Part shown: positions 379 through 36,406 of the stretch, one piece after another
How positions within the stretch are numbered: the first letter of the stretch is position 1
Layout: every line of letters begins with the position of its first letter
Origin: a virus
Lineage: Duplodnaviria; Caudoviricetes
Length of the DNA stretch: 64,000 nucleotides
IMG/VR virus record: IMGVR_UViG_3300020577_005688
Span: 32,001 to 96,000 of that record
Reading direction: 5' to 3' (one strand)
Translations under genes and position numbers: made by a program
Notes under the pieces: model-generated
Seen by the model: the letters and a program-made list of their open reading frames with translations, nothing else
The model's database searches: none
Told to the model about the DNA's origin: nothing

Positions 379-732
379 TTACTTCGCCTCTGTGTCAGGC
401 CGTGCTGGGCCCTTTACGATACGGTGTGTCAGGCGTCCTCCGCCATACCCAACGAGAGCGTCACCGGCAGTTCCGACAGCGACTCTTGCGGCCAGTGATT
501 TCGGGCTTCCAGACGCTTTGAGTGCGATACGACGTGTTTTTGGGTGAGCGAGAATGGCAGCTCGCATCGCAGTACCCACTCCAGCATTTGCGATAGCACC
601 CCTCTTACCCCATTTGTGGGCACGTTCTTGCTCTGACTCTGCATTTTTCTCAAGATCTAGAAACTCTTGAGCGAGTTCTTCAATCTCGTCAACACTGTAT
701 CCGTACTCTGCGGCAATTTTTTGAAGTGACAT
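379..732 (-). CDS. Small putative internal head protein (KxA motifs, Gly/Ala-rich helices)
   Basis: AGGAG RBS; acidic N-terminus with QKIA and EKNA, followed by a basic Gly/Ala-rich segment; lies directly downstream of the capsid gene. Confidence 0.7.
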   Translation of the reverse strand: MSLQKIAAEYGYSVDEIEELAQEFLDLEKNAESEQERAHKWGKRGAIANAGVGTAMRAAILAHPKTRRIALKASGSPKSLAARVAVGTAGDALVGYGGGRLTHRIVKGPARPDTEAK

Positions 733-750
733 TGCGAGTCTCCTGGTAAG

Positions 751-785
751 AAAAAAGGGGAGGAGGAGATCTCTCCTCCTCCCCT
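751..785 (-). terminator. Intrinsic terminator after the major capsid gene
   Basis: Inverted repeat AGGGGAGGAGGA/TCCTCCTCCCCT with an A6 run on the + strand, giving a U-tract on the - strand. Confidence 0.85.
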
Positions 786-808
786 AGTTTAGGACAGGTG
801 TCTACGAA

Positions 809-1933
809 TTAGAACTGGTCGACCGCTGGGACCGTGAGACCGTCATCAGCACGGTTGTTCACAGTGAAGAGGCTCGACTCATCCTTCGGGAGAAGGTTGG
901 CGAAGCCCGAGTCAGTTGCACCAGGGGTCACGGAACCACCGAAGAGCTCCAGCTTGACGATGGAGGCGATGTTTCCGATACCGATGGCGATGTCTTCCCA
1001 CGACTGCCAGGTGATCAAGTTCGCGATCTTGTCGATGTAGAACTTGGTCTGGTTCAGGACGTAGAAGCGGCCCATGAACTCAGGAGCGGTGAAGCAGTAG
1101 ACGTTACCTTCGCGGAGGAGGTCCGTCTTGATGGTGCGGATGATCTTCAGACCGACAACCGTGTTGGCCTTCCAACCTTCAGTGGCCGTCTCACCAGCGA
1201 TGGTCATACCCACGTCCTGGATGGTCCAGTTCGTGAGATCATCGTAGTCTGGCTCGGTCATGACCATCTGGTTTGCACGCAGACGGCGGCGGTGCAGGAG
1301 CTTCTTGAGCTTCACGAAGTCCGGCTTGAGGATTGGGTAGATGGTGAAGTCGTTGGCACCAGCGGACAGCGTGCCTTCGCCCTTCACAACCGACGCACCG
1401 ACAACCGAGCTGGCGTTGACGTTGGTCACGTTGAAAGCAGTGGCCACGTTGCCGTTGGCGTCGAGCTGGTAGGCCTGGACAGCAGCCTCGATGAAGACGA
1501 GGAACTGACGGTCCTCGATCTCCTGGATGTCCTTCACCGAGTTCTCTTCGATGATCTTGGTGATGGGCATCTCGTAGGCGAGCAGTTCCTGCTCCGTCTT
1601 CTCGAACTTCTCCGACCCGATCGTGAAGAACGGGATCTCAAAACGAGGAGCACGGATGAAGCGGGCAGTTGGCTGACCACGGAAGGTGAGAGCAACGGCC
1701 TTCGAGTTGGGCTCGATGTCGATGATCTTGACCAGGGTGTCGTGGTTCACTGAACGCTGGCACTCCGTCCTCTGGACAGGCTGAGGGGGGAGAATCTTGC
1801 GTGCAAACGAGACTTCACGCAGACGGTCTCGGATGTACGTTCCACCGAACTCGGCAATCTTCTCCTTGCCTTCGGTGGTTGCGACCTTCTCGAAGAAAAG
1901 GTCATTCAGGACTTTGGCTGGGACGGCACTCAT
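809..1933 (-). CDS. Major capsid protein (HK97-fold likely)
   Basis: True start MSAVPAK at 1933 with GGAGA RBS (374 aa). It sits after protease, scaffold and decoration genes, shows strongly biased codon use, has a downstream terminator, and contains capsid-like motifs (RDRLREVSFARKILPP, IQEIEDRQF). Confidence 0.8.
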   Translation of the reverse strand: MSAVPAKVLNDLFFEKVATTEGKEKIAEFGGTYIRDRLREVSFARKILPPQPVQRTECQRSVNHDTLVKIIDIEPNSKAVALTFRGQPTARFIRAPRFEIPFFTIGSEKFEKTEQELLAYEMPITKIIEENSVKDIQEIEDRQFLVFIEAAVQAYQLDANGNVATAFNVTNVNASSVVGASVVKGEGTLSAGANDFTIYPILKPDFVKLKKLLHRRRLRANQMVMTEPDYDDLTNWTIQDVGMTIAGETATEGWKANTVVGLKIIRTIKTDLLREGNVYCFTAPEFMGRFYVLNQTKFYIDKIANLITWQSWEDIAIGIGNIASIVKLELFGGSVTPGATDSGFANLLPKDESSLFTVNNRADDGLTVPAVDQF

Positions 1934-1964
1934 GTGTTTTTCTCCGTTCAATTCAGTTAGTGGA

Positions 1965-2450
1965 TTAGACCTTGACGTTGGCCATGTGGACGAAGCGAAC
2001 CTTGCTTCCCGTAATCTTCGACACGTAGCCAACAATGATGCGGTTTGCAGTCGCACCAGTGAGAGCAAGACCACGGCGCACGATGCCGCCAATGGTGATG
2101 TCTTGAACGGTAAGGGCCGAACCAATAACGAGCGAGGTCGTGTTCACGATCTGAGTTTCGGCCTCATACGTGCCGAACATCAGGACGTTCACCTTCTTGA
2201 TTGCCTGAACATCGTAGCGACCCTTCTCAGTGTGAACAGGGAAGACGTTGTACTGAGTTGCTTCGTCTGCCGTTCCTGAGTTGTTATCACCACCACGAGC
2301 AAGCTGGTAGGACGAGTTGAGCTCAAGCCACTCACCTTCAACGAGTGGACGAACCGTGAGAGGAGCAAGCATCGTCTCGTCCGCAACTGGGAAATCGCGG
2401 CGGTGAAGAGTCTGGAGCTCCGTGATGAGTTCAAACAGTGGTGCGGGCAT
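1965..2450 (-). CDS. Putative capsid decoration/cement protein
   Basis: 161 aa, beta-rich, immediately upstream of the major capsid gene, GGAGA RBS. Confidence 0.6.
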   Translation of the reverse strand: MPAPLFELITELQTLHRRDFPVADETMLAPLTVRPLVEGEWLELNSSYQLARGGDNNSGTADEATQYNVFPVHTEKGRYDVQAIKKVNVLMFGTYEAETQIVNTTSLVIGSALTVQDITIGGIVRRGLALTGATANRIIVGYVSKITGSKVRFVHMANVKV

Positions 2451-2494
2451 TTTGTTGTTTCTCCGTTAGGGTGTGTTTGTTGGTCTTGAGAGCG

Positions 2495-2857
2495 TTAGTC
2501 GATTCCAGCGAGGGAGGCTGCGAAGACATCTTCTGCAGCACTTCCAGAACCTTCAACAACAACTGAACCAGAGTCCGCGATTGAAGCGAGCTTGGTCTGA
2601 GGGGCGGACATGCCGATTGCTTCCTCAACTGCATCAAGGTTGTCCTTGCGCATGAGCGAAGCAACCTTCTCTTCGTAGGAGAGTTCGGGGTTCAGACTCT
2701 TCTCTTCCATCTGAGAAGCAATCTTCTCCACGCGCTCCCTGTGTTCGAAGGCTGCCACCTTCTCCTTCAGTTGCTGGTTCTCTTCTGCAAGAGAACGGAG
2801 CGAACCGGCAGCCAGCTTCATCATTTGACCGACTTGAACGTTGCTGAGCTTATCCAT
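2495..2857 (-). CDS. Putative scaffold/head assembly protein (coiled coil)
   Basis: Helical, charged 120 aa; EKVA, EKIA and TKLA motifs; within the head operon. Confidence 0.6.
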   Translation of the reverse strand: MDKLSNVQVGQMMKLAAGSLRSLAEENQQLKEKVAAFEHRERVEKIASQMEEKSLNPELSYEEKVASLMRKDNLDAVEEAIGMSAPQTKLASIADSGSVVVEGSGSAAEDVFAASLAGID

Positions 2858-2877
2858 GATTGTTGGCTCCTTTCCTC

Positions 2878-3927
2878 TTACATCATGCCCATTGGCTTCG
2901 GAGGCGTCATTCCAGCACCCATTGCCGGAGCGCCGCCCATGCTCTTCTTCTCCAACTTCTTCTTCTCAAGCGCCTTCTTCAGTTGCTCATGACGAGGATC
3001 CTTTTCATCCTCGGCAATCTTCTGAAGGAGTGCCTTTGCCGCTGCGATCTTCACGCCACCCTTGGAGGCGTTACGCAGATTCTCATGAACCTTCGAGTCG
3101 TTTGCCTTTGAGTACGCAGGCTCAGTCAGGACCTCAGAAAGCATCTTCTTCTGTGGGCCCTTTCCATCAACCTTCTTCATGTTGATAGCAGCCTTGCTCG
3201 ACTCAAGAGGAGAGCGAACGTTGTTTCCGCCCTTTGAGTCAGAGGGAGGAGCAGTCTTCACCTTATCGTCGGTGAGGACCTCACCACCACCCTTGGCCTC
3301 GGCCATCTTGCCGAGAATGAATTCAAGAGCGGCAGACTTCTTCTCCTTCTTCTCGTCTCCCTCTTCCTTCTTCTCTTCCTTCTTAGGCTCTTCCTTCTTG
3401 TCTTCGTCCTTCTTCTTTAGAGCCTGAATCTTTGCCATCACACCTTCAGCGGCTGTCTTGAGGACGCCCTTCTTTGGATAGGCGGCCCCACCTGGTGCCT
3501 TGGCGTGGTCGTTCTGGACTTGAGTAGACGCACCAACCTCAGCCTTCTGCTCTGGGGTGTGCATTGGCACATTGTGAGACTTCGACTTGTCGTGCTTGTA
3601 GGGCTGTGTTCCAGAGACTGGCTTCATCGTTGCCAAGGTCTCTCCGCCCTGCTTCTTCTCTGTCCCAAGGTAGGTTGCATCGGAGGCAATCTTCTCTCCG
3701 ACTTCCTCAAGGGCGGAAGCAAGCTTCTCGACGTCATCAAAGTCGGCAGACGACTTCTTCTCCTTGTCGTCTTCCTTCTTCTCTTCCTTCTTCTTCATGA
3801 AAGGAAGTGCCTTCTTCTCGTCCTTCTTCTCTTCACCCTCTGACGCGATCTTGACCTGAGCGCCAGAAATCACGCTCGAAATCATTTCGTGCAGAGAGAC
3901 TTGACCTGCAAGCTTTGAGTGCATCAT
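2878..3927 (-). CDS. Lys/Glu-rich putative scaffold/internal head protein
   Basis: Low-complexity K/E tracts separated by SKLA, VKIA, EKLA, EKIA, LKTA, GKMA and QKIA. Confidence 0.65.
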   Translation of the reverse strand: MMHSKLAGQVSLHEMISSVISGAQVKIASEGEEKKDEKKALPFMKKKEEKKEDDKEKKSSADFDDVEKLASALEEVGEKIASDATYLGTEKKQGGETLATMKPVSGTQPYKHDKSKSHNVPMHTPEQKAEVGASTQVQNDHAKAPGGAAYPKKGVLKTAAEGVMAKIQALKKKDEDKKEEPKKEEKKEEGDEKKEKKSAALEFILGKMAEAKGGGEVLTDDKVKTAPPSDSKGGNNVRSPLESSKAAINMKKVDGKGPQKKMLSEVLTEPAYSKANDSKVHENLRNASKGGVKIAAAKALLQKIAEDEKDPRHEQLKKALEKKKLEKKSMGGAPAMGAGMTPPKPMGMM

Positions 3928-3933
3928 GGTCTC

Positions 3934-4206
3934 CTACAAATCTCCCCTCGGGAATGCGACAGGGGGTGGTTGGATTACTTTCGAACTCTCAGCAAGATCC
4001 GTTGAAGTTGCCGGTTGGGTCGGATCCTTGTGGACTTTGCTGTAATTTGGTTGTTTTGTCGACAGTGCCGTTCCCTTGCGAGAAACTACTTTCGTCACTT
4101 CCCCAACAGTCGCTGGCTTAACTGCAGCCATTCCAATCTTTTGGAGCTCATCTGAGAACCCCATCAACATTTCCAAACTGAGCTTGGGGATGTTGATGGA
4201 ATTCAC
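3934..4206 (-). CDS. Small protein carrying the FxDELxKI tag
   Basis: GFSDELQKIG near the N-terminus; GGAG RBS. Confidence 0.65.
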   Translation of the reverse strand: MNSINIPKLSLEMLMGFSDELQKIGMAAVKPATVGEVTKVVSRKGTALSTKQPNYSKVHKDPTQPATSTDLAESSKVIQPPPVAFPRGDL

Positions 4207-4222
4207 AGACTCTCCGAATGAA

Positions 4223-4252
4223 TCGTGGGGGAGAGTAATCCCTCCCCCACGA
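4223..4252. other. Intergenic stem-loop with no clear U-tract
   Basis: TCGTGGGGGA...TCCCCCACGA inverted repeat between two co-directional head genes. Confidence 0.55.
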
Positions 4253-4260
4253 AGAAACGA

Positions 4261-5070
4261 TTACTCGGCTTCAGCCTCTTCCGACTCGAACTCATAGCCT
4301 TCTGCCTGGAGAAGCTCCATTGCACGGGCCTCAACAGCAGCAGCAAGAGCGTCAGCAGGATTCGAAGCGGTCTTCTCTTCGACCTCTGCCTCCTCGTTGT
4401 AGTCGATGCCATTCTCAGCAAGGATCTCAAGAGCACGCTGAGCCGCGAGCGTGTCAAGAGCGGAAACCGCGCTCGACTTCTTGTCCTTGTACTTCTTGGC
4501 CGCAGCTCCAGTACCAACGGCCCCAGCACCAGCAACGCCCAGAGCCTTCACGGAATTCTTGTTTTCCTTGATAGTCCTCTTCACTCCGTGGGTCTTGACG
4601 CTATCCTTGAGGGCAGAAGCAGCCTGACGAGGGCTCTTGGCCATGTACGCGAGGTCCTTGAATCCTCCCTTCACATCCTCCTTGTGACGCTTGAGGTGGC
4701 CCATGACCTTTCCAGCAGTCTCCTTCACTCCTGCCTCCTTCTCGATGTTCCTGAGCTCCTGAACATACGAGTGAGCCATCACGCGGCCGAGGTAGTCAGC
4801 TTCGGCGAGCTTCTCAGAGGCCTGCTTCTCCTCAGTCTCCTCCGTTGCCTCAGCCTCTTCGGTCTCCTCAGCTGCCTGAGTCTGCTCGTCAGCACCCTGA
4901 GCGAGAACTTCCTGAGCGAGGGCCTCGATCTGGTCCTCAGACATGCCTTCGAGGTTGAGGGACTCGTCACCAGCGAGCTTCTCAGCGAGTTGAGCAGCGG
5001 CCACCTTCTCAGTGTCCTGGGTCTGCTCTTCCGAGTTCGTTCCGTAGATTTCTGCGAGACGTGGATCCAT
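4261..5070 (-). CDS. Acidic scaffold-like head protein with a basic internal cassette
   Basis: E/A-rich; EKVA, EKLA, EKQA, EKEA and EKTA motifs; a basic Gly-rich insert lies between EKEA and KKSSA; directly downstream of the protease. Confidence 0.7.
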   Translation of the reverse strand: MDPRLAEIYGTNSEEQTQDTEKVAAAQLAEKLAGDESLNLEGMSEDQIEALAQEVLAQGADEQTQAAEETEEAEATEETEEKQASEKLAEADYLGRVMAHSYVQELRNIEKEAGVKETAGKVMGHLKRHKEDVKGGFKDLAYMAKSPRQAASALKDSVKTHGVKRTIKENKNSVKALGVAGAGAVGTGAAAKKYKDKKSSAVSALDTLAAQRALEILAENGIDYNEEAEVEEKTASNPADALAAAVEARAMELLQAEGYEFESEEAEAE

Positions 5071-5181
5071 TTGTTTTCTTCTCCGTGGGTATTGCGATTT
5101 TGGGTTGGCCGTCTTTGAGGCTTCTGCCTCTAGGCTGTGAAATCAGACATTCAATTGTCTGCACCGTTTACTTCGTTGAGG

Positions 5182-6762: not shown

Positions 6763-6774
6763 CGAGGTCACCAA

Positions 6775-7478
6775 TTAGAACGGCGATGAGGATCCTTGGT
6801 TCTTCTTGTACTCTTTGCGGTCTTCTGAATCAGAGCGGAGCTTTTCCCTGTAGTCTTCCTTCTTCTTGAAGTCTTCGAATGTCTCCCTGCCTTCTGACTT
6901 ATCATTCTTTAGCATCAGAGGTGCAAGCTTGGAGACTTCCTGGAAGTGCTTCGATTTGGCGTTGTTGATGTTTGACTGAGTAGAGATGATGTCCTGCATC
7001 GTTTTGTAACTCTGACCAGGAAGCTCAGCAACGATCCTCAGCAGAGAGCCTCCAACAAGAGGGTCAGAGGTCATATCGGGAGCAAAACGATGGATAGCAT
7101 TGAAAGCCATCGTAAGATCTTTCTTATTCAACTCTCTCTTTAGAGACGGGTTAGCTTCCATAATTCGCTTAAAGTTTCGGCTCTTTGTCAGACCTCTCCG
7201 AGCGGCGTCATAAAGATCAGTTGCGGCTGAGCTCATAACACCAGCAGCTACACTCGATCCAAGGAGTACACCCACTCTCTTGGCCGTATCTAGAATCGTA
7301 GACTGAGAGACTTCTGCTGTCTTCTCCTTGATGGTCTCAAAAATGACCTCAAAGTCACGAAAGATGTCTTTCGTAAACTCGGGAGCAAGCTTGTCACTCA
7401 ACGCAATGACTTGTGCGGTCTTCGCCATCATCTCTGGCTGAAATTCTTCGACTTCCTTCAAGAGTTCTTCAAGAGTCA
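6775..7478 (-). CDS. Putative internal virion protein
   Basis: ATG at 7478 with GGAG RBS; AKTA, DKLA and EKTA motifs followed by the hydrophobic helix VGVLLGSSVAAGVMSSAA. Confidence 0.65.
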
Positions 7479-7494
7479 TTTGATTCTCCAAAAA

Positions 7495-7929
7495 TCAGAT
7501 TTGGTGATTCTCTGGGCGGAAGCCCTGTTTGAATTGCTTGTACTTAGAAGGGGCTTTTGCTGCAGAAGACATCAGCATCGCTCCACCCGCGACAGAACCA
7601 GCGACAGGAAGAACCCCATGCTTTCCTGCTTGATTCTTGAAGTGATTGGCAATCCGACCCATCACTCCACGTTTCTGAGCTGCAGGAGATACTGGGGCTG
7701 TCTTTGGAGCAGGTGCTTGTTGCTTCACAGGAGCAGTTGCTGTCGGAGTTGACACAGGAGCGGAGGACGGTGCCGCTTTTGAGGCTGCTTCTGCTGTGGC
7801 TTTATTTTGAAGTGACTTGAAAGTAGCCTGACGTTCTACCATCGAGGCACTTGCGCCCATACCACGGGCGGCAGTCTTACGAAGTGCATTTGAAAAGGAG
7901 GCAATCTTTTTCAATCTCGAATGAAGCAC
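7495..7929 (-). CDS. Basic Ala-rich putative internal virion protein
   Basis: KKIASFSNALRKTA (degenerate tag) and a Gly-rich hydrophobic C-terminal helix. Confidence 0.6.
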   Translation of the reverse strand: MLHSRLKKIASFSNALRKTAARGMGASASMVERQATFKSLQNKATAEAASKAAPSSAPVSTPTATAPVKQQAPAPKTAPVSPAAQKRGVMGRIANHFKNQAGKHGVLPVAGSVAGGAMLMSSAAKAPSKYKQFKQGFRPENHQI

Positions 7930-7931
7930 GA

Positions 7932-9035
7932 TTAACCTCCGAAGTTCGTTGGAGGTACAGGAGCGGGCTGCTTCTTTGGAACCATAGATGCCGCAGTTGC
8001 AACGGTTGAGACTGGGTTCCGCTTCATCTCACCAATTGCATTACGGGCGAGTGACCCACCCAATGTCTTTGACTTCAACATAGAGGATCCAGCAGCGAGA
8101 AGACCCCTCCCAGCTGCCATAACGGCAGGAGCGAAGGCACTCTTGATGAAACTATTGACATCAGAGAGCTCGGACTGAACTTCCTCAAGCGCAGTCATGG
8201 TGGTCCTCAAGTCCTCACCAGACATGATCATTGCTGAGTATGACTGAATGAGTGGGTGAGTGGGGTCGACCAGACCGTGAGCCAACTTTTCCCCTTCGGC
8301 GAGCTGCTTCTTTAGCTGCGAGACAGAAGCAACCTTCTCCTGAATAAGACGACCGACGATGGGTTCCAAAAGAGTCTTGGTCTCATCGCCAGTGATTGTC
8401 TCGGTTGCAGCGTAAGCCTCGCCGAAGGAGCCTCCATCAAGAATGTGACGCTTGAGCACGTCGTAGAACTCAGACGCCGCCTCCTTGAAGAGGGACTCAT
8501 GCTGGTTGAACCTATCCATCAGGTTATCACGCAAGGAAGACAGAGTCTCCTTTGCAGACATGACCTCATGGACGATTGTTTCTTTGCTGTAGTTCTTCTC
8601 TTCTCCGGCCGTCTTGAACATGTCGGCCAGACCCTGTTCCGTCTCCTTCGAGGAGGTCTTCACCTTCTTGATTTGCCTGTTGTAGTCGATGTCGGTGTTT
8701 GTTACCACCGTTGGACGAGCTCCATCGGACAAATCCTGAATCACTCTTCCAGCATCTGCGAGGTCGAACTGAGGATAGCTGTGGTCAGAACCAGCCGTCT
8801 TATCTTGGTCGTGCTTTGCGAGGTACACAGCCGTGTTCGCAAATTCAACGACTCGCTTAACCTGCTCCGGCGAGATATAGTCATGCTGAGCAGCGAGCTT
8901 TGAGATACTGTCATTCAATGACACGCCATCCCTCAGAAACATGGTTGCAGCTTCTTTGCCCATCATCTCAAGAGACTCGGGCGAAAGCTTGGCGTGATTC
9001 TTTCCGCTCAAGAGGTAGTCTGTAAACTCATCCAT
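7932..9035 (-). CDS. Putative head/core protein, first gene of the head operon
   Basis: GAGGAG RBS; helical; many KxA motifs (GKEA, SKLA, DKTA, FKTA, FKEA, EKVA, EKLA, IKSA); basic tail after the last motif. Confidence 0.7.
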   Translation of the reverse strand: MDEFTDYLLSGKNHAKLSPESLEMMGKEAATMFLRDGVSLNDSISKLAAQHDYISPEQVKRVVEFANTAVYLAKHDQDKTAGSDHSYPQFDLADAGRVIQDLSDGARPTVVTNTDIDYNRQIKKVKTSSKETEQGLADMFKTAGEEKNYSKETIVHEVMSAKETLSSLRDNLMDRFNQHESLFKEAASEFYDVLKRHILDGGSFGEAYAATETITGDETKTLLEPIVGRLIQEKVASVSQLKKQLAEGEKLAHGLVDPTHPLIQSYSAMIMSGEDLRTTMTALEEVQSELSDVNSFIKSAFAPAVMAAGRGLLAAGSSMLKSKTLGGSLARNAIGEMKRNPVSTVATAASMVPKKQPAPVPPTNFGG

Positions 9036-10283: not shown

Positions 10284-10290
10284 CATTTCC

Positions 10291-10360
10291 CCGAGAGGAG
10301 CTTCACAGCTCCTCGGAGAGTGCGCACGTTTCCCTCCTTTACCGTGCGCACTCTTTTTTA
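10291..10360 (+). terminator. Tandem hairpins; the second is an intrinsic terminator
   Basis: GAGGAGC/GCTCCTC hairpin, then AGAGTGCGCACG/CGTGCGCACTCT followed by a T-tract. Confidence 0.8.
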
Positions 10361-16177: not shown

Positions 16178-18832
16178 TCACTCCTGCGAGTACTGAAGAG
16201 CCTTCAACGAGAGGATAACCTCTTCCATGTTCTTCATTGACCGCTCGACTGCTCCAATCGGGATTTCCTTCATGCCGAGGTAACCAGCAAGAACCATCTC
16301 AGCCATCTTCTCAGAGCACTGCTCAAGCTCTGGCAAGAACTCGATGAAGGTCGAGAGGTTCTCTGGATTGATGAAGTTCAAGGCCAAGACTTTATCGACT
16401 GTACCCTGGTCTTCCATCTGGGCGGCTTCCTTGATGAGGTCCTTCCTCAAGTCAGGGAGCTTGGAGAGAAGGCTGGAGGCTGTCTTCACAGACTCCTGGA
16501 ACCTCTCAGCCAATGGAACAATGGTCTTCAACCCAGCGAGCTTGACCGAGCCGGTCCTCCGAGCCTCAGCAACCTTCTGCTTTGCGGTCACACCATCGAC
16601 GCCAAGAAGACCGAGCATGAACTCAGCACTCACGGCATCGAGACTGTGCTTCAAGTCAGCAGCAACCTTGTCGAGGCCACACCCACCAACGATGTTGAAT
16701 GCACCGTTGTAGAAGAGAACAGCAGAGGTCTTCTCTCTGTTCACCTTCTTGGAAGAACCCACAGACTCTCCCTTTTCTGCGAGAGAGACTTTGGAGTTGA
16801 GACGAGTGAATCCCCAACCATGTGGGAGTGCGTACTCATCTTCTGCAATCTTCTGAGGGGTCTTGAGGCCTGGAATGATAGAGACCTTCACTTCGTTTCC
16901 GAAGGAATCGACTCCAATATAGCGCGGAACTCCATCGGACCCATTCATTCCAAACTTCACTTCGATGGGAGCAGAGGCCTGCGTCCCATCGGAAGAACGG
17001 AACACACCAAGACCCTTTGGAATGTCGATAGGCGGAGACACATCCTCTGACTCGACCTTCTCTCCAACGATGTCCTGCTGAATGGCGTGACCCTTTTCTC
17101 CAACAAACAGGCCAGTCTTCTGAGGTGAGAACGACTCGTCCCAGGCAAAGGTCTCTGGGAAGACCCAACCTTCCATGGTCTTTCCAGCAGTCGTCTGGAC
17201 CTTGTAACGACCGAACTCGGAAACAGCAGAAGTGTCTGAAGCTTCTTCTGTGTCGAGTTCAACTGGGTCAGAAACAGCAGTTGCTGTCTGGCCAGGCTGC
17301 ATTGCCTTCGCGACTGGAGCCCCAATTGCCTCTGCCACCTCTTCAAAGGGCACGACTTGACCCTGAGCTTGGGCACCGCCTGCAAACGCCTGAACGTTTG
17401 CCGACTTCACCATGAAGGCTCCACCTGGGAGCTTCTGGAATGTCACAACAGAGGGCTCAATAGAATCGGCAAGCGTCTGCAGACGGTCATTTGCAGAAGC
17501 GAGCTTCGTGTCCATCACTTCGACAAGAGTCGCAGCAATGCCAGACTTCTTGAAACCCGCACGGAGGAACGGATCCGCTGCAACCTTCTCAACAAAGGCA
17601 TCCCTATCCGACTCTCGAAGAGTAGGAGCAATTGCTTGGAGAAGTGACGCAGTCTTCACTCCAGGCGAGGCAGCTGGCTTCTGTGGTTGAGCAGAAGACT
17701 TTTGAGCCTGAGCTGTTGCCTTTTGAGCCTGCTGACCTGGCGAAGGTGGATATACCTTTGGGTGGTATCCGTATTGGTTTGCGGCGATTGAGTAGACCTC
17801 GTTGATCACCTCTGGGTGGTCGTGGGTCATGTGCTTCTGAATCATCTTCTGAATCTTGTCGCTCTTGTAGATGGCCTCCCACTGCTCTTTCGAGATGTGC
17901 TTGAAGGCCTTCTTCTCCTTTGGCTTTGCTGCTTTTGGAGCCTTGGGAGCGGGAGCAGCCTCCTCCGGTGCTTCTTCCATTCCCCCTTCTTGAGCAGCTG
18001 CATCGAGACCCTGCTCATGTGGAGAAGGAGCAGCAGCCATCTGAACACCGGCCTGAGCTGCCAAGAGCTCTACATCAAGATTCCTCTTCTCCAAGTGGAG
18101 AGCGTCACGCTGAAGATTCTTCGCCATGCGCTGTGAGGCACGACCGGAAGACTCCTCAATAGTCTGCTCCATCTCACGCTGTGAGAGGTCCTCTTGGTCA
18201 AGAGTGAGAAACTGCTTCTGAAGTTCAAGAGCCTTCTCGAAGAGGGCGGTTCCAACATACTTCTTGAGCCACTCATCTCGATAATCGAGACTCGGCGAAG
18301 GTGATGACGAAATGGGCGAGCCCGCCTCAAGGGCCATTGCCATCTTGTACTCACCACCCATGCCGATTCCCGAACGCTGCGGAGGCATCAGAGGCTCGAC
18401 AAGACTTGGGTCTCTCGGCACAGATGTAGAGAGGTCAAACATTGCTGGGTTGAAGAGCGTCTCACGAATTCGCTCTTCACCGAGAGGAAGGACGCGCTCT
18501 CCATCCAAGAAGACGGAGAACGGACGTACTTGCCTCTCCTCCGCTACGAGAGGGATTCGAATATGAGGAATACCAGCCTCCTCATGCTCGATCTCTGGGC
18601 GTTCTGTCCTGTTCGCAACGTCAGCATAACCAAAGGCAAACCCACGCCCTTGATCAACCTTGTCGAGAGAGACATTCACTTCGTAATCAGACAGGAATGG
18701 ATACTGGCGGTGAAGTTCGCTGCCAATCTCCTGGCCCCAGTTATCTGGCGTCTCAGACAGACGATGAGTGAATCCAGCTTCCTTGGTCTGAGGCTCTTCA
18801 GTTGTTGCTGGACGCAGAAACAGTGAACGCAT
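16178..18832 (-). CDS. Large putative virion core protein with many KxA motifs
   Basis: 884 aa; GAGGAG RBS; TKEA, YKMA, VKTA, EKVA, TKLA, VKSA, DKVA, IKEA and EKMA motifs. Confidence 0.7.
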   Translation of the reverse strand: MRSLFLRPATTEEPQTKEAGFTHRLSETPDNWGQEIGSELHRQYPFLSDYEVNVSLDKVDQGRGFAFGYADVANRTERPEIEHEEAGIPHIRIPLVAEERQVRPFSVFLDGERVLPLGEERIRETLFNPAMFDLSTSVPRDPSLVEPLMPPQRSGIGMGGEYKMAMALEAGSPISSSPSPSLDYRDEWLKKYVGTALFEKALELQKQFLTLDQEDLSQREMEQTIEESSGRASQRMAKNLQRDALHLEKRNLDVELLAAQAGVQMAAAPSPHEQGLDAAAQEGGMEEAPEEAAPAPKAPKAAKPKEKKAFKHISKEQWEAIYKSDKIQKMIQKHMTHDHPEVINEVYSIAANQYGYHPKVYPPSPGQQAQKATAQAQKSSAQPQKPAASPGVKTASLLQAIAPTLRESDRDAFVEKVAADPFLRAGFKKSGIAATLVEVMDTKLASANDRLQTLADSIEPSVVTFQKLPGGAFMVKSANVQAFAGGAQAQGQVVPFEEVAEAIGAPVAKAMQPGQTATAVSDPVELDTEEASDTSAVSEFGRYKVQTTAGKTMEGWVFPETFAWDESFSPQKTGLFVGEKGHAIQQDIVGEKVESEDVSPPIDIPKGLGVFRSSDGTQASAPIEVKFGMNGSDGVPRYIGVDSFGNEVKVSIIPGLKTPQKIAEDEYALPHGWGFTRLNSKVSLAEKGESVGSSKKVNREKTSAVLFYNGAFNIVGGCGLDKVAADLKHSLDAVSAEFMLGLLGVDGVTAKQKVAEARRTGSVKLAGLKTIVPLAERFQESVKTASSLLSKLPDLRKDLIKEAAQMEDQGTVDKVLALNFINPENLSTFIEFLPELEQCSEKMAEMVLAGYLGMKEIPIGAVERSMKNMEEVILSLKALQYSQE

Positions 18833-27969: not shown

Positions 27970-28058
27970 GTCTTCCTCTTTCGGCCACACTGCGGAGTGG
28001 TTTATGGCGTACCCGGCTCTACCCCACCGCAGAGAGGGTCATCGAGCCTTAGCATCCC

Positions 28059-29591: not shown

Positions 29592-29607
29592 TTTGAGTCG
29601 TTTTTTA
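29580..29607 (+). terminator. Intrinsic terminator at a convergent junction
   Basis: AACGACTC/GAGTCGTT stem followed by TTTTAGCT. Confidence 0.8.
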
Positions 29608-29609
29608 GC

Positions 29610-30200: not shown

Positions 30201-32297
30201 TTAGACACCCGTTGAGGAAGGACGACGAGTTGGTTTGAGAGTCGGCTGAGGACTCTGCACTGGATTAAGTGGGTTCTCCTGCGAGCCCTTCTCTGACTCA
30301 ATGATTTGAAGGACAAGACTGTAGAGCTGAGGGCTCGTCATCTGCATTCGGTTCATCTCAGCCATTCGGGTGCCTTCGTCCATCTTCTGAAGAGTCGTTG
30401 CTGCTCGACGGGCGAGATACAGAACGTTCATTCCTCCACCTCCCTGAGTGGAGGCGTTCAGAGGACTCATCAGAGTAGACGGGATTCCCTCAGCAGGAGC
30501 TTGTTGAGCGTTCTCGGCAGAGACGGTTGCACCCTGAGGCATTCCTGGATCGACTTGCTGTCCATCCATCATCTCACCCTCAGGACCAGTGGGAGCTCCT
30601 GTTCCTGGGCCCTCTTGACCGGGGATTGGTGCCTCTGGAGGCGGAGGTGCCCCTGGAGGAGCTCCTCCTGCAACGCCTGCCCCTCCTTGAGCTGCAACTG
30701 CTTCCTGGGGTGCCCCAGGTGCTCCGCCTTGGAGAGCTTGAGAGACCATCTCAGTTGCCATCTTCTGATAGCGAGCCTGCACCATCTGCATCTCGCCCTG
30801 AATGGTCGCCTGAGCAACTTGCATCTTGCGATTGAGTTCAATCTGTCTATCGAGCTCACCCTTGATACGGGCATCCTCAGTAGCCGGGTCGAAGTCAACT
30901 TCCTGGAGCAGCGTCTGATTCGAAATCTTCTGTCCCTGATTGAGCTGGAAGAAGAACGCAGAACGTTGCAGGTCGTCTGCCATCTTGAATCGACGCATGT
31001 GCGCCTGAACTGCAGGCCACCCCATGAATGCAGCGATGCGCTTGATTGTGAACTGATTCAACATCAAGTCATGGTCTGTCCGATACCCAAGGAACATGTT
31101 CTCCAGCATCCTCATGGAGACGTTGCTTCCTGAGTACTGCATGCCACCAAAGACGAACTCCTGAGGCACCCCCATTCCAGCCACGATTTGCTTCGACCAG
31201 ACTTCCATCTCCTGGTGAAGCATCAAGGCTCGGCCGTCCCCGCCGATGGTCTGACTTCCGATTGGAAGAGGAAGAATCGGAATGTAGTTAGGGTCGTACT
31301 TCCACTTCGCTACTTCACCTTCAATGCGACTCTTCCACGAGTCGAGAGAAATTGTCGTGTATGGGTCCGAAGAGCTACTGTTTCCTTGAGGGAAGAGAAC
31401 TCGCATCGGAATGATGTGTTCTTGCGCAATTGCCTCCTGCGCCTTCCTCAAGATTTGAAGATAGAACGTGTCCTTCAAGACAGGCATGATCAGAGGCATT
31501 CCCCAGCCAGAATCCTTCTGACTGATGATTGGCCTTCTGAAGACGAAAATGTTGTCGTCTGCGAAGCGAACATACTTCCCGCGCTTCATTGCCTCGATGA
31601 AAGTGTCTGGGATGGTATCGAGAACGCTCTTCTTCCCAAGCACCACATCGTTGCGAACCTGGAGAGGGAGCTCGAACGTGTAGACCGGCTTCGCGCCTGC
31701 AAATGCAGGGTCCACGTTCACATACTCAGGATTCCATCTCATCAAACGAATGCCGTTCAAGTCTCTCTTGTAGAAATCTTGAACCTTCGCTGGTCCGACA
31801 GTGCGGCACTTCGGACACTCGATGATGTAGTCGAGGTTCCTCCACTTGTAGTGGGTCTTCGTTGCCTTTTCTTTGTGCTTACAGTTCTGGCAGATGAGGA
31901 ACTTGTCGAATGGAAAATGAATCGTGACGAAGCAGATTCCATACGTGTAGTAATCGAGACCAATCTCAATCTGAAACGGGCGGTACCGAAGAACTCCGCC
32001 CAACAGCGTATCCCACTTCTCTTTGATTGCGGGGTCCTTCTCATCAATGACAATCTCAGTGATGGGGTACTCAGACATCTTGTGAATGACCGCATTGATG
32101 AGCGGATTCACGAGATAGTAGTACCGACACCACCGCAGGAGGGCCTTGAGGGAAGGAGGAAGGTAAGTATGGCCGATGTCGAAGAATGGAGATGGATACC
32201 GAACTCCACTCCTCGACATGCCGTCAGCAGTTCTTCCACGGTTCCCAGAGAACCTGGAAGTTCCACCAAATCCAAGAGAGACGTTGTCCATTGACAT
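30201..32297 (-). CDS. Portal protein
   Basis: YYYLVNPLINAVIHKMSEYP, LMRWNP, WGMPLI and IVAGMGVPQEF portal-like motifs; C-terminal coiled coil and P/G/Q tail; CxxC...CxxC insert. Confidence 0.8.
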   Translation of the reverse strand: MSMDNVSLGFGGTSRFSGNRGRTADGMSRSGVRYPSPFFDIGHTYLPPSLKALLRWCRYYYLVNPLINAVIHKMSEYPITEIVIDEKDPAIKEKWDTLLGGVLRYRPFQIEIGLDYYTYGICFVTIHFPFDKFLICQNCKHKEKATKTHYKWRNLDYIIECPKCRTVGPAKVQDFYKRDLNGIRLMRWNPEYVNVDPAFAGAKPVYTFELPLQVRNDVVLGKKSVLDTIPDTFIEAMKRGKYVRFADDNIFVFRRPIISQKDSGWGMPLIMPVLKDTFYLQILRKAQEAIAQEHIIPMRVLFPQGNSSSSDPYTTISLDSWKSRIEGEVAKWKYDPNYIPILPLPIGSQTIGGDGRALMLHQEMEVWSKQIVAGMGVPQEFVFGGMQYSGSNVSMRMLENMFLGYRTDHDLMLNQFTIKRIAAFMGWPAVQAHMRRFKMADDLQRSAFFFQLNQGQKISNQTLLQEVDFDPATEDARIKGELDRQIELNRKMQVAQATIQGEMQMVQARYQKMATEMVSQALQGGAPGAPQEAVAAQGGAGVAGGAPPGAPPPPEAPIPGQEGPGTGAPTGPEGEMMDGQQVDPGMPQGATVSAENAQQAPAEGIPSTLMSPLNASTQGGGGMNVLYLARRAATTLQKMDEGTRMAEMNRMQMTSPQLYSLVLQIIESEKGSQENPLNPVQSPQPTLKPTRRPSSTGV

Positions 32298-33274
32298 TAT
32301 TGATCTGCCTTCTCTTGTGGGAGTTTCTTAGGCTTGAATCCCGTCACTTTGTTGATGCCCTTACCGACCAACTTACCGGCTTGATCACCAACAACGCTGC
32401 CGAGAATAGAACCTGAGATACCACGCTTGGCGGTTGCGAGGTTTCCAATTGTCGAACCTACGAATCGAGAAACTCTTTCTGCTCTTGAAGTCTGACCCGT
32501 AGGGTCTTTCTTCAGAGCAGCGACGGCTTGAGGAGCGGTGAATGCGACTGTCATTCCGTGATTTGTCAACTTACCAGCTCGCTGAAGACCCGTAAGGTTA
32601 CTCTTTCGAGATACGGCATCCTGGACGTCTGTCTTCATCCTCCCCAACTCTTGGCGTGCGTTTGAGATCGGACTCGTCAGGTCACTCGCCGCTCCCTTGA
32701 GATTCCTTCCGATGCCTTTTACGTACTCTTTGGCACCGCCCTCTTCGGACTCTGCGATCTTCTCATGATTACGCTTCTTCCTCTTATGAAGAGCGTAGGC
32801 ACCAGCGGCGAGGCCAGTTGCAGCAAGACCAGCAACACCTTTCTTCCAGTGTTTCTTAGCAAAAGAAGGAAGTTTTTGAGTAGATGTCGGTGATGCGTTT
32901 GTTTGAGTAGGTGGTGATTTATTAGACGGTTTTTTCTGCGTACTATACTCTTTTCCACCTACTTCTTTGAGTCTTTTTCCTCTAGAAAATTCGTCGTAAC
33001 CATCCCCTACAGCATCTGATACAACTGTTCTACTCTTACGCAAACGTTCTGATTTCGCAATCTCAGGCCTCCGATCGACAAAGGGCCGTTCTTTTCCTTT
33101 GAGAGTATGGCGATATCCTCCAAGAACGTCTCCTTCGAGTCTAGCGCCGCTATCATCACTATTGAGCGAATGCCTCATTAGAACACCTCTCCGAGCATGG
33201 CGTCGAATCCACTCTTCAGAGACGGCAATCTTCTCAAGCTCATCAAGGAATGATCTAACGGTCATGAGGTTCAT
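32297..33274 (-). CDS. FxDELEKIA-tagged basic protein with glycine-zipper helices
   Basis: ATGA-coupled start MNLMTVRSFLDELEKIA; second EKIA mid-protein; GVAGLAATGLAAGAYAL helix. Confidence 0.75.
   Translation of the reverse strand: MNLMTVRSFLDELEKIAVSEEWIRRHARRGVLMRHSLNSDDSGARLEGDVLGGYRHTLKGKERPFVDRRPEIAKSERLRKSRTVVSDAVGDGYDEFSRGKRLKEVGGKEYSTQKKPSNKSPPTQTNASPTSTQKLPSFAKKHWKKGVAGLAATGLAAGAYALHKRKKRNHEKIAESEEGGAKEYVKGIGRNLKGAASDLTSPISNARQELGRMKTDVQDAVSRKSNLTGLQRAGKLTNHGMTVAFTAPQAVAALKKDPTGQTSRAERVSRFVGSTIGNLATAKRGISGSILGSVVGDQAGKLVGKGINKVTGFKPKKLPQEKADQ
33225..33246. repeat. 22-nt direct repeat, copy 1 (encodes DELEKIA)
   Basis: GCAATCTTCTCAAGCTCATCAA, identical to 34709-34730. Confidence 0.85.
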
Positions 33275-34206
33275 ACAGTTCCTAGCCAAGACTTGAGAGC
33301 AACGAGCTGCTCAGAGAGTTGCCTTCTTCGGATGTTCATGTAGTCACGTGCGATAAGCAGCTTTGCGACTTGAACATCTACCTGTGTCTCTTGGAGATCA
33401 ACTTCTTTCGTTGGATGTTCCTTTACCTCATTCCAACGATGTTCGATGGGATCTGGGTCGAACTGAAGAACGAGTTTTACGTTCTGCCCCTTACCCTCTC
33501 GAACCAAATCTGGGTCTGGTTGAAATGAGAAACCATTCTCTGGGTCGAACCTCTTCGTACACGTGTCACAGATTCCGTCGTGGAAGAGAGCAGAGTCCTC
33601 ACTCCCGCAATCAAGGCACACGTATCTTGGGTGGCTCACCTCAACCTGCACAAAATCAAGAGGAGGTGGAACAAAGAACACATCTTCGTTCAAGACAGAA
33701 GCAGCAATGTACGCCTTCACCTCATCATTGAAAGGCTCTGGGCGAATTGAGTTCATGATGTCCACTCCCGCAAACAACTGGTCGAGGGATGGAGCCTGCA
33801 TGAACTCCCAGCGAGGAATATTGTTGTTCAGAGCCTGAATGACCTTCTCAAACACCTGCCAACTCTCCCAAGGCTTTCCAGTCGTATGAAGCGTCTTGAC
33901 GGCTTGAATCTTGGACCTGGCATGTTCTGAGACTTGAGACGAGAAGACCCTCTGAATCTCTTGGAAGATAGTCGACGTTTCCCAAGAGAACCAGTCAACT
34001 CCAAACGCCTTCAAGAGGGCGAGGTCAATGACTACTGGATGGGTGTCGTGGTGTGTAAAGATGTTCCGAACTGTGAGAGGTGTTTGAACGTCTGGATTAT
34101 CCTTCTTGAGTTCGGATTCCATCGCAGACCCCTCCGACGGTGCAGTTGGCTTCTTTGCCTCTGCACCACGAAGACGCTCAAACAGGTCAAGTTCTGGATT
34201 CTTCAT
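33271..34206 (-). CDS. Hypothetical virion-region protein with zinc finger
   Basis: 311 aa; CLDC...CDTC. Confidence 0.7.
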   Translation of the reverse strand: MKNPELDLFERLRGAEAKKPTAPSEGSAMESELKKDNPDVQTPLTVRNIFTHHDTHPVVIDLALLKAFGVDWFSWETSTIFQEIQRVFSSQVSEHARSKIQAVKTLHTTGKPWESWQVFEKVIQALNNNIPRWEFMQAPSLDQLFAGVDIMNSIRPEPFNDEVKAYIAASVLNEDVFFVPPPLDFVQVEVSHPRYVCLDCGSEDSALFHDGICDTCTKRFDPENGFSFQPDPDLVREGKGQNVKLVLQFDPDPIEHRWNEVKEHPTKEVDLQETQVDVQVAKLLIARDYMNIRRRQLSEQLVALKSWLGTV

Positions 34207-34755
34207 TTATGCCTTCTTGAACGTGTTGGCGATTCGAGCCATGACGCCCATTGCCTGTGGGCGAGCGGCGCTTCGAACAGGCCCAGCAGAAGGCAACGCA
34301 ACCGAGCTCCTCACTGCAGGAGCGGCTCTCTGCACAGGCTGATGCCCAACAGACGTGGAGGGCATGAAGTCGGAGTAGTGGGAGGGATCCTTCTTCATCA
34401 AAGCAGGAGCGGCCTGAGTCTGAGGCTTCCCTGCTGCTCTCTGAGAATCGACGAGCATGTGATTTTTCATCATGGCCGCATTGGATACTGTAGCAGCTTT
34501 CTTAGTGAGGAGCCTCTTCCCAATACCCTTAAGCATATCCTTGTTGTGGATCATCTCCCCAGCAAGGATGGAGCCGGTAAACGCAGCGGACGCGCCGTCC
34601 TTGACTCGCTCGCCTTTGGATTTGTGCTTATCAAAAGCACCCGCACCTTCAATCGCAGTCAGACCTCCGAGACCTGTCATCGACAGTCCAGCAGGCAGCC
34701 CACCGACAGCAATCTTCTCAAGCTCATCAAAGAACGACCCCATGTGGATGCTCAT
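34207..34755 (-). CDS. FxDELEKIA-tagged Gly/Ala-rich protein
   Basis: MSIHMGSFFDELEKIA followed by a Gly-rich hydrophobic segment; AAGGA RBS. Confidence 0.75.
   Translation of the reverse strand: MSIHMGSFFDELEKIAVGGLPAGLSMTGLGGLTAIEGAGAFDKHKSKGERVKDGASAAFTGSILAGEMIHNKDMLKGIGKRLLTKKAATVSNAAMMKNHMLVDSQRAAGKPQTQAAPALMKKDPSHYSDFMPSTSVGHQPVQRAAPAVRSSVALPSAGPVRSAARPQAMGVMARIANTFKKA
34709..34730. repeat. 22-nt direct repeat, copy 2
   Basis: Identical to 33225-33246. Confidence 0.85.
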
Positions 34756-34765
34756 TGTCGTGTCC

Positions 34766-36406
34766 TTAGTTTGCGTTCATCGCGTCGAACTTGCCGTTGG
34801 CAAGTCTTGCAAGAATGACCTTTGAGTCATCTGGCATTGACTCAAAGATGGTGATTGGGTCTTTGATGAATGAATTCGTGAACTCGCTTGCGAAGTGCTT
34901 GTGAACGAGAGGTCTACCGTTTCTCGCAAGCCACCTCAACTCTTCCTCGCTCACGTAGTCACCAGTACGACCAGTCCAAGACCAAGCAGCAGCCTGCTTA
35001 CCGAACGTTGCGTAGTAGGGGTCCGCGACCTCTCCACCCCAAACCCAACGCAGTCCGGAAATCTCGTCGGCTTCTGAAAGGAGGGAGGCGAACTCTTCGG
35101 GCTCAATAGATGCCCTCTTTTCACGAAGCTCTGTGTACACAGGAGCGTATTCTGGAGGGGCTACTGCGAGACGATTTGCGAGGTGAGCATCGACGTCGAT
35201 TGCATAGTCTGTCGACCCATACCTTTGAATCGTCTCCGAAAGAGGAAGGCCAAGCTCATTCGCACGAGCTGCGGTCTTCACAGCAAAGATGTGCGCCTCG
35301 ACAGGGTCAATGGTCTTGTAGTTGTCCTCGAAGTACTCGATGGCCTTCTGCACGTCAGCCATTGCGTCGAGGGGGAACCGACCCCCAAGAGCCGTGCGCT
35401 CTGCGGAGGCTCTCTTCACCTGGATTTCAGGAGTCTGGCCAGAAACATTGACAATCGAAGAGCTCTTGATGAGTCTCTTGTGTTCTCGTGCTTGGGCAAT
35501 GTCTCCGAATGGATTGTTCGATTCGATGTCTCGAAGGGCTTTCTTGCCCTCAGCGGTCGCACGTCGGAACCCAGTTGCTAGGTCGCTTCCTTTGGCTCCC
35601 ATCGAGTGGGCCGTTACGCGATGCAGCGCATAGCGTTGCGCCTTTGATGCGTTCTCTGGGTATCCCTTGATGTTGGCAAGCTCCTTGAGCCCCCTAGGAA
35701 GTCCAGCTTCTTTTGGCATCGACCCCGGATTCAGCTTGTGGAAGCTGTCGAGGTTAACGTCTTTCTTCCCGTGGTGTTTCCCGAGAGCGTACCCACCGGC
35801 CCCTCCGACCAAAACTCCCCCTGCCCCGGAAGCAATTGCAAGATGTTTGATGTTCTTCAGCAGCTTCTCCGCTTCAGCCGGAGTGAACGAGGCACTTGCG
35901 GCGGTCTTCATCTGAGATGCCGTAGGAATGACTCGACCAGAATCGGCACCACCTTGAATGCTGGTAAGGTTGGTACGTTGGCTCCACTCAACGTCATCGT
36001 TTGGAGCGGGCTGCTTGGATGGATTGCGGGTCTTCGACATTCCCGTCTTTGCAGCTGTCTTAAGCCAGCCTGGAACTGGGAGCTCGAACTCTTCACACGC
36101 ATCCATCAAGTTGGATGCGGCCGTCTTGACTGCTTCTTGGGGAAGAAGAACTGCGCTCTCATTGAAGTAGAGAATCGAGAGGGCGGTGTTACCTGCGTCA
36201 ACACATGCAAACTTTCGCATGTGAGTGCCGTTGTTTACCATCGTCAGTGCGTATGCTTCATCACGGAGAACTTCCCGTTCCTCTGGAGAAAGGATGTGGG
36301 CTTCCTTTACGATATCGGGCAGGTCTGCGGAGGTGGGGCAGGCCTTCTTGAGCAGAGTCCCAGAGAGGTCGTCGTAGAAGTCAAAAACAACGCCAGCAGT
36401 ACGCAT
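34766..36406 (-). CDS. Putative head protein with KxA-flanked internal cassette; first gene of the portal operon
   Basis: AAGGAG RBS; VKEA, VKTA, LKTA, MKTA, PKEA, VKRA and GKQA motifs; internal LAIASGAGGVLVGGAGGYALG helix. Confidence 0.72.
   Translation of the reverse strand: MRTAGVVFDFYDDLSGTLLKKACPTSADLPDIVKEAHILSPEEREVLRDEAYALTMVNNGTHMRKFACVDAGNTALSILYFNESAVLLPQEAVKTAASNLMDACEEFELPVPGWLKTAAKTGMSKTRNPSKQPAPNDDVEWSQRTNLTSIQGGADSGRVIPTASQMKTAASASFTPAEAEKLLKNIKHLAIASGAGGVLVGGAGGYALGKHHGKKDVNLDSFHKLNPGSMPKEAGLPRGLKELANIKGYPENASKAQRYALHRVTAHSMGAKGSDLATGFRRATAEGKKALRDIESNNPFGDIAQAREHKRLIKSSSIVNVSGQTPEIQVKRASAERTALGGRFPLDAMADVQKAIEYFEDNYKTIDPVEAHIFAVKTAARANELGLPLSETIQRYGSTDYAIDVDAHLANRLAVAPPEYAPVYTELREKRASIEPEEFASLLSEADEISGLRWVWGGEVADPYYATFGKQAAAWSWTGRTGDYVSEEELRWLARNGRPLVHKHFASEFTNSFIKDPITIFESMPDDSKVILARLANGKFDAMNAN

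Follow-up and report, generated by a model that had tools for sequence, protein, structure and literature searches.

The minus-strand head module of an uncultured tailed phage raises the question of why the tripeptide K-x-A recurs in its proteins, and whether this tripeptide is the site at which the phage's prohead protease, the product of 5182-6762 (-), cuts its substrates. The stretch of DNA that was analyzed, called the window here, comprises 64,000 nucleotides (positions 32,001 to 96,000 of IMG/VR record IMGVR_UViG_3300020577_005688) and is part of a 141 kb contig; the head module runs from 9035 down to 379, and among cultured phages its nearest kin are Salmonella phage Arash (181 kb) and the Vibrio phages D181, D148 and D69. 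A sequence-only reading of the window had proposed that the protease cuts after the Ala of K-x-A and that the proteins carrying the motif are polyproteins. The answer favored here, with a probability of roughly 0.7, is that K-x-A is the cut site of the head protease, with cleavage after the Ala, in a substrate motif [M/L/F]-E-K-[T/I/L/V]-A that is followed by S, A, G or E. This answer is well supported, but it is one that we infer: K-x-A behaves as a recognition motif, in that its enrichment is confined to head and prohead proteins, it is subject to purifying selection, it is placed in leaders, in the capsid protein and on the flanks of the protease domain, and a large clade of phages has it in common.

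K-x-A motifs are present as described in all 12 of the open reading frames (ORFs) named by the sequence-only reading, and the EKVA and EKIA that it had placed near the capsid N-terminus lie at residues 15-18 and 24-27 of the product of 809-1933 (-). Expected numbers were obtained from shuffles within each protein, which keep its composition, and blocks of genes were set by strand and position alone because selection bias was to be avoided. The block defined in this way around the head genes takes in every one of the 12 minus-strand ORFs at 3-9035. Its count of K[ILVT]A is 37, where 6.5 would be expected (z 12.6; a value that none of 1000 shuffles reached), that of KxA is 52 versus 29.1 (z 4.6) and that of KxA[ASG] is 29 versus 8.0, while the reversed motifs are not in excess (AxK 19 versus 29.5; A[ILVT]K 5 versus 6.4). 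The plus-strand replication block at 36557-56789 has no excess of K[ILVT]A (8 versus 8.0), so that the composition-corrected comparison of minus-strand head genes with plus-strand replication genes, which the sequence-only reading had suggested as a check, turns out in favor of enrichment in the head genes. Among 1600 gapped residue pairs in the 13 listed proteins, KxA ranks first (86 versus 44-45 expected, z ~7), and z ~7 holds if the shuffles are restricted to 30-residue windows. Neither KA nor KxxA, KxxxA or AxK is enriched in these proteins, which rules out composition and helical periodicity as the cause, and x-E pairs are absent among the top-ranked gapped pairs. In scans of ORFs covering all 141 kb of the contig, the eight with the highest enrichment of K[ILVT]A are all on the list drawn up by the sequence-only reading. 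The window's remaining proteins are slightly and weakly depleted in KxA (53 versus 72-75).

The surroundings of the motif are not random. M, L or F is preferred two residues before the K and E (33%, 3.9-fold) or V directly before it, the middle position prefers T, I, L or V, and the Ala tends to be followed by S, A, E or G and then by A. The residue after the Ala is S in 19-22% of cases, A in 16-27%, G in 9-10% and E in 11-13%; the sequence-only reading had likewise noticed E or V before the K (33% and 13%) and A, S or G after the motif (27%, 19% and 10%, with E at 13% in addition). Conserved positions extend from P5 to P2' of the assumed site, and information drops past P2'. The demands on the two fixed residues can be read from 47 related loci, which are the surroundings of protease homologs with 31-84% identity: K[ILVT]A is found 1224 times against 306 expected, but R[ILVT]A (168 versus 244) and K[ILVT]G (160 versus 229) are depleted and K[ILVT]S is up only 1.6-fold. 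The Ala at the third position can be replaced weakly by Ser but not by Gly, Thr or Val, and the Lys at the first position not by Arg, Gln, Glu or His. Thus, from the depletion of the R- and G-variants and the mere 1.6-fold excess of the S-variant, neither the Lys nor the Ala can be dispensed with, which is what an enzyme's recognition site would show.

The same signal is found across the clade. In approximately 44 of the 47 loci the motif is in 3-6-fold excess on the strand that encodes the protease, with no excess on the opposite strand, and in 27 of them KxA holds the first or second rank among ~1200 pairs. KxA ranks first in the head genes of Vibrio phage D181 (51 versus 23; neighboring genes, 14 versus 21), and the Arash head proteins gp220, gp222, gp223 and gp225 are rich in K-x-A. 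In alignments of orthologs, the K and A of the motif are kept in 62% of cases versus 36% for K and A elsewhere in these proteins (p ~1e-7), many sites being islands of conservation amid variable sequence; on the evidence of these alignments, the K and A of the motif are under purifying selection. In the scaffold-like families, the positions of single sites turn over while their counts stay very high, which is typical of a short linear motif selected for its presence rather than its position. The protease family itself is large, with 1464 proteins at E <= 1e-5 among 8000 candidates scored, many of them on 190-210 kb contigs; with its more than 1,400 homologs it also takes in Arash, D181-type vibriophages, phage G and cluster C actinophages, and one relative, on a viral contig of 196,807 bases, has a protease 84% identical to the product of 5182-6762. 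R-x-A, in the form R-x-A[SAG], takes one of the first five places among gapped pairs in the protease and its neighbors of two actinophages, E3 and Myrna, a weak hint that a basic-x-Ala rule may extend to the entire protease family. The protease domain forms the N-terminus of a protein of 895 amino acids in Rhodococcus phage E3 and of one of 1211 amino acids, annotated as "tape measure", in Mycobacterium phage Myrna.

The placement of the motif within proteins is equally uneven. In each of the 13 listed proteins the first K-x-A lies no further in than residue 29, whereas the mean of shuffled sets is 4.6 of 13 (0 of 5000 reach 13) and only 13% of other ORFs have a K-x-A there. The major capsid protein (809-1933 (-), 374 amino acids), identified by a match to phrog_2522 (major head protein) and 29% identical to Arash gp226, with no sequence match found in the PDB, carries two such sites. 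KIA25-27 (1853-1861 (-)) is the predicted cut site and is kept in 90% of 20 orthologs, and the capsid proteins of Arash and Vibrio phage D181 have KEA at the equivalent position; the second site, KVA16-18 (1880-1888 (-)), is poorly conserved (25% of the 20 orthologs). Several carriers of the motif are rich in K, E and A, but the capsid protein and the protease are of ordinary composition.

The product of 5182-6762 (-), 526 amino acids in length, is identified as a prohead (capsid-maturation) serine protease by its fold, its homologs and a weak match to phrog_18299, so that the function assigned to it by the sequence-only reading stands. It consists of a catalytic domain (residues ~40-233), a disordered linker (234-325) and a helical C-terminal domain (326-493). 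A model of the full-length protein is poor, with a mean predicted local distance difference test (pLDDT) score of 57.5, weak fold matches only and folded parts at residues ~40-220 and 326-493; a model of the domain (residues 38-250) has a pLDDT of 89.6, with the last strand ending at ~230. The best match of the domain model among 48,161 PDB chains is T4 gp21 (5jbl_A; Z 10.0, root-mean-square deviation 3.0 Å, 135/165 residues), Foldseek compares it with 5jbl at a probability of 1.00 and an E of 5e-3, and the next viral matches are the proteases of varicella-zoster virus (Z 6.7), human cytomegalovirus (Z 5.5) and Kaposi's sarcoma-associated herpesvirus (Z 3.5). The modeled catalytic domain is firmly assigned to the fold of T4 gp21, HK97 gp4 and herpesvirus assemblin. 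By sequence, no Pfam family matches the protease at E <= 0.01 and PDB sequences gave no match to a profile made from the protease alignment, but phrog_18299 ("head maturation protease") matches residues 88-199 weakly (E 1.8e-6). Homologs include Arash gp222, phage G gp19 and the "prohead protease" of Rhodococcus phage E3, and among the tblastn matches are genes of Rhodococcus phage E3 and Gordonia phage Stormageddon whose annotation is prohead or capsid maturation protease. Ser166 (codon 6265-6267, in VSMG) and His109/His110 are the probable catalytic residues, being invariant in 27-30 homologs down to ~31% identity; an alignment of the protease with T4 gp21 by hhalign is not significant (probability 0.2), but it pairs Ser166 with Ser140 (GVSS) of gp21, which we take to be the catalytic serine of T4.

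The protease contains six K-x-A sites (KQA29, KTA236, KVA243, KAA282, KLA300 and KTA503), all of which lie in segments of low pLDDT (residues 1-37, 219-325 and 494-526) outside the folded parts. The sequence-only reading had stated that the sites frequently sit at boundaries between segments, and this is correct for the protease (6 of 6 outside the folded parts), which is the one protein in which it was checked. Five of the sites are kept in 74-100% of 35 orthologs and KTA503 in 69%, with flanks down to 20% identical; K282-x-A284, for example, is kept in 91% of orthologs amid flanks that are 20% identical. The last strand of the domain is followed by an invariant tail, D235-K-T-A-K...K243-x-A245-S, modeled with low confidence.

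Three further features of the protease were observed. Directly after Ser166 there is a cluster of cysteines (C169, C176, C179 and C190, then H192; 6175-6258 (-), residues 169-196) that is invariant or nearly so in the 27-30 homologs, is present in Arash gp222 and phage G gp19, and looks, from the sequence, like a zinc-binding insert in the gp21-like fold. Some homologs (P0001, P0035 and the long protease ORFs of loci L017, L024, L030 and L048) have at least 900 amino acids and contain Hint and homing-endonuclease domains (PF05203, PF13403, PF14528), which indicates that inteins have entered the protease gene of near relatives, including one with 97% identity to the window's protein. In a subset of homologs (P0013, P0043, P0119 and others), the disordered linker contains an additional domain, PF18905, that separates the KVAS site from the KxAS site (alignment columns ~285-345).

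That a statistic of this kind reports a protease motif is indicated by T4, for which the same scan of gp67, gp68, gp21, gp22, gp23 and gp24 ranks IxE first (23 versus 10.4) and LxE eighth; [LI]xE, the experimentally established motif of gp21, occurs 46 times versus 22.5 in the T4 head proteins (z 5.7). The scan thus recovers the known site, and the signal in the window is of the same type but stronger. By analogy with the I/L-x-E of T4, the S/A-x-E of phiKZ and the A-x-E of SPN3US, the K would be P3 and the A would be P1, and the protease would cut after the Ala, before a small P1' residue, during head maturation. The major capsid protein would lose an N-terminal propeptide of 27 residues, the protease would trim itself on both sides of its catalytic domain, and short N-terminal leaders (7-30 residues, some with FxDELEKIA) would be removed from proteins imported into the prohead, where these leaders would act as capsid-targeting sequences resembling those of T4. 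Scaffold-like proteins with multiple sites, such as the product of 2495-2857, would be chopped into small peptides. The parts of this scheme that are least certain are the scissile bond after the Ala, which is assumed by analogy and from where the motif's sequence information lies, and the role of the leaders in targeting. With regard to the sequence-only reading, its proposal that this protease cuts at K-x-A holds insofar as enrichment, conservation, placement and the T4 control show the motif behaving as a recognition motif, the cut itself being what we infer; its description of the carriers as polyproteins was overstated, as the pattern is unlike that of several functional products per ORF and fits better with leader removal, self-processing of the protease and degradation of the scaffold.

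Several observations weigh against cleavage at K-x-A. Proteins that presumably must remain intact do not lack the motif: it is at expectation in the terminase orthologs (61 versus 68.9) and in other ortholog families, so that avoidance by such proteins is not supported. In phage G, the homologous protease carries motifs but the head module is not enriched overall, and the capsid protein has no K-x-A site, its deposited chain (6wkk) being nearly full length. Direct evidence of a cut has come neither from this phage nor from its relatives; what is published on Arash is not at the peptide level that would reveal processed termini, the supplement consisting of gene tables. The Arash virion proteome (trypsin, sucrose gradient) covers 100% of several motif-rich head proteins and 85% of the protease, and such full coverage is an argument against complete cutting if the search was fully tryptic and only mature virions were present; however, 116 of 272 Arash proteins were detected, so the sample probably held proheads or contaminants.

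Four alternatives to cleavage after the Ala can be considered. The motif may be a protease site that is cut elsewhere, either after the Lys or one residue further on. The span of conserved positions from P5 to P2' and the invariance of the Lys, equal to that of the Ala, would allow this, but in all characterized cases of this protease fold the cut directly follows the final fixed residue of P3-x-P1 and precedes a small one, and the sequence information falls past P2', so a bond elsewhere is unlikely. Similarly improbable is that K-x-A is an uncut docking or targeting motif that binds the scaffold, the capsid protein or the protease and so imports proteins into the prohead. The strong N-terminal bias of the motif, the resemblance of the FxDELEKIA leaders to address tags and the full coverage of motif-rich proteins in the Arash proteome are all compatible with docking; yet up to 14 copies per protein at shifting positions are better explained by redundant cleavage, the conserved sites that flank the protease domain by self-processing, and the T4 control ties a signature of this kind to a cleavage motif. 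There is very little to recommend the third alternative, in which E-K-x-A serves as an acceptor whose conserved Lys is modified, for example by ubiquitin-like conjugation or capsid cross-linking: it would account for the failure of Arg to replace Lys, and hydrophobic-E-K-x-A loosely recalls acceptor motifs such as psi-K-x-E, but the invariant Ala, the small next residue, the position in leaders and the flanking of the protease domain would be left unexplained, and nothing links conjugation to the K-x-A sites. Finally, that the motif is a functionless by-product of helical low complexity rich in Lys, Ala and Glu in scaffold-like proteins, as the K/E/A-rich composition of several carriers might suggest, is hardly credible and was rejected as contradicted by the within-protein and 30-residue-window shuffles (still z ~7), by the lack of enrichment of KA, KxxA, KxxxA and AxK, by the depletion of R-x-A and K-x-G, by the greater conservation of motif residues than of other K and A, and by the presence of the motif in the capsid protein and the protease, which are of ordinary composition.

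The preferred reading, cleavage after the Ala of K-x-A, can be followed through the other carriers of the motif, beginning with those of the head module. The most enriched ORF of the contig is 2495..2857 (-), encoding a small head protein of 120 amino acids with five K[LVI]A[AS] sites (14, 33, 45, 64, 89; K[ILVT]A 5 versus 0.3 expected) that are kept in 56-89% of nine orthologs; its sequence predicts a scaffold- or core-like protein that may be cut into peptides of 12-31 residues. The adjacent ORF 2878..3927 (-) encodes a Lys/Glu-rich, scaffold-like head protein of 349 amino acids with 11 KxA, including KLA5 and KIA26 near the N-terminus (K[ILVT]A 8 versus 1.2 expected), and six of its sites are kept in 8 of 8 orthologs. 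An acidic, Ala-rich head protein of 269 amino acids (4261..5070 (-)) has six KxA (22, 31, 82, 87, 111, 233), of which KVA22 is kept in 95% of 20 orthologs despite flanks that are 35% identical, and its ortholog family has 116 K[ILVT]A versus 19.8 expected. Antisense to this gene lies a 297-amino-acid ORF, 4225-5118 (+), that is longer than the real gene and would mislead gene calling based on the longest ORF; it is almost certainly spurious. Upstream of the protease gene, 6775..7491 (-) encodes a head-module protein of 238 amino acids with KTA24, KLA34, KTA57 and KLA188, of which KTA57 is kept in 75% of 20 orthologs with flanks 11% identical; 7495..7929 (-) encodes a small basic protein of 144 amino acids, rich in Ala and Gly, with N-terminal KIA8 and KTA18; and 7932..9035 (-) encodes a head-module protein of 367 amino acids with eight KxA, in whose ortholog family KxA occurs 296 times versus 86.5 expected although single positions turn over. 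The weakest member is the small protein of 117 amino acids encoded downstream of the capsid gene at 379..732 (-), which has a single site (KIA at residues 5-7) and is not enriched when taken alone.

Outside the head module, 16178..18832 (-) encodes a protein of 884 amino acids with 14 KxA (K[ILVT]A 8 versus 1.7 expected); its KSA476, KVA722 and KEA801 are kept in 88-100% of eight orthologs with flanks 24-34% identical, no homologs were found in cultured phages by tblastn, and it is a candidate packaged or processed protein. Two proteins encoded next to the portal gene with leaders of a shared form, ...F(L/F)DELEKIA↓V (the arrow marks the predicted bond), are candidates for capsid-targeted cargo: the product of 32297..33289 (-), upstream of the portal gene, which has KIA20 in the N-terminal leader ...SFLDELEKIA↓V and KIA177 as a further site, and the 182-amino-acid product of 34207..34755 (-), with the N-terminal leader MSIHMGSFFDELEKIA↓V (KIA14). 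A leader of the same type, GFNDELEKIA↓G, was observed in one of three adjacent small ORFs with N-terminal K-x-A sites at 113661-114831 (-) of the contig, ~17.7-18.8 kb past the end of the window. The products of 7495-7929 (-) and 34207-34755 (-), which are small, basic, Ala/Gly-rich and otherwise dissimilar, have the motif GVMGRIANHFKN / GVMARIANTFKKA in common, at the C-terminus of the latter and ~45 residues before the end of the former. The last carrier, 34766..36406 (-), encodes a protein of 546 amino acids with KTAA[SKR] at 94, 116, 167 and 377 as well as KEA34, KEA232 and KQA470 (K[ILVT]A[ASG] 4 versus 0.3 expected), and no homologs of it were found in cultured phages by tblastn.

The protease and capsid genes are on one strand, the former ~3.2 kb upstream of the latter, and the genes between them encode small charged proteins; the head module of Arash has an identical gene order. 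The large terminase gene lies at 10358-12151, and the portal gene was assigned to 30201-32297. A protein of 2453 amino acids is encoded at 20629-27990 (-), and its C-terminal 570 residues have 26% identity (E 2e-53) with the RNA polymerase subunit gp216 of Arash, which is plentiful in the virions of that phage; KxA is below expectation in the 2453-amino-acid protein (7 versus 13.1).

No description of a K-x-A prohead motif was found in the literature searched. The type of system is well known, and what appears to be new is the K-x-A motif, with its predicted P1 Ala and obligatory P3 Lys, in a family that is essentially uncharacterized. Tentatively, and with somewhat less than even odds, this may be a very large, mostly uncultured family of prohead proteases that cut between basic-x-Ala and a small residue, the first of phage origin to share the Ala-Ser preference of assemblin, and the leaders of the FxDELEKIA type may load cargo by packaging followed by release. 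If the interpretation is correct, it would supply a cleavage rule for the head protease of a widespread, almost unstudied clade of phages, from which mature boundaries, scaffolds and packaged (probably injected) proteins could be predicted in hundreds of metagenomic genomes and in Arash and D181. The cargo might include virion RNA polymerase machinery, and a leader together with its site could be put to use as a candidate tag by which capsids are filled with foreign proteins, as has been done with T4. A phage protease with P1 Ala would join a family whose characterized phage members cut after Glu, and the gap to assemblin would be narrower. Given that the system is of a known type, all of this would refine existing knowledge without overturning it.

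Of the systems available for comparison, those of Arash and D181 belong to the closest cultured relatives. The N-terminal 250 residues of Arash gp222 and D181 VPHD181_0277 are 39-41% identical to those of the window's protease, and module order, K-x-A enrichment in head proteins and equivalent N-terminal sites of the capsid protein and protease are shared; the middle residue of the motif is broader (T, Q, E, A, S), and the protease genes are annotated only as "structural protein" or "hypothetical", with no processing reported. With T4, the window shares the protease fold (Z 10.0 with gp21), a three-residue P3-x-P1 motif that is enriched in head proteins and detectable by one scan, and the distribution of sites at the capsid N-terminus, in large numbers in the scaffold, in leaders on packaged proteins and on the flanks of the protease, the leader sequences and the self-processing of gp21 having been described (PMC9026906). 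The motif differs, being I/L-x-E with P1 Glu in T4 and K-x-A with predicted P1 Ala here, as does the protease, which in the window is 526 amino acids long, has an insert rich in Cys behind its probable catalytic Ser, ends in a large domain of helices and lacks significant sequence similarity to gp21.

The parallel with phiKZ that was drawn by the sequence-only reading applies to how the system is laid out and does not extend to the motif itself, which is S/A-x-E in phiKZ, with redundant sites in propeptides (PMC9026906), and A-x-E in SPN3US, with V at P4 and S at P1' (PMC10052503). The proteases phiKZ gp175 and SPN3US gp245 (S/A/G-x-E) likewise use one short motif in many head proteins, with redundant propeptide sites and a small P1' (Ser), and a virion RNA polymerase is common to both sides of the comparison. 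They belong to unrelated phage lineages, and their sites have P1 Glu and a small P3 where P1 Ala and P3 Lys are predicted here; cleavage was proven there by mass spectrometry and in vitro assays, and is predicted here. The maturational protease of herpesviruses, assemblin, cuts (V/L/I)-x-A↓S. It differs in having a hydrophobic P3 in place of Lys, the hydrophobic preference in the window's motif being at P2 and P5, but it belongs to the same fold family, it processes itself and the scaffold, as the window's protease is predicted to do, and its Ala-Ser bond would be matched by the predicted P1 Ala and P1' Ser/Ala of the K-x-A sites.

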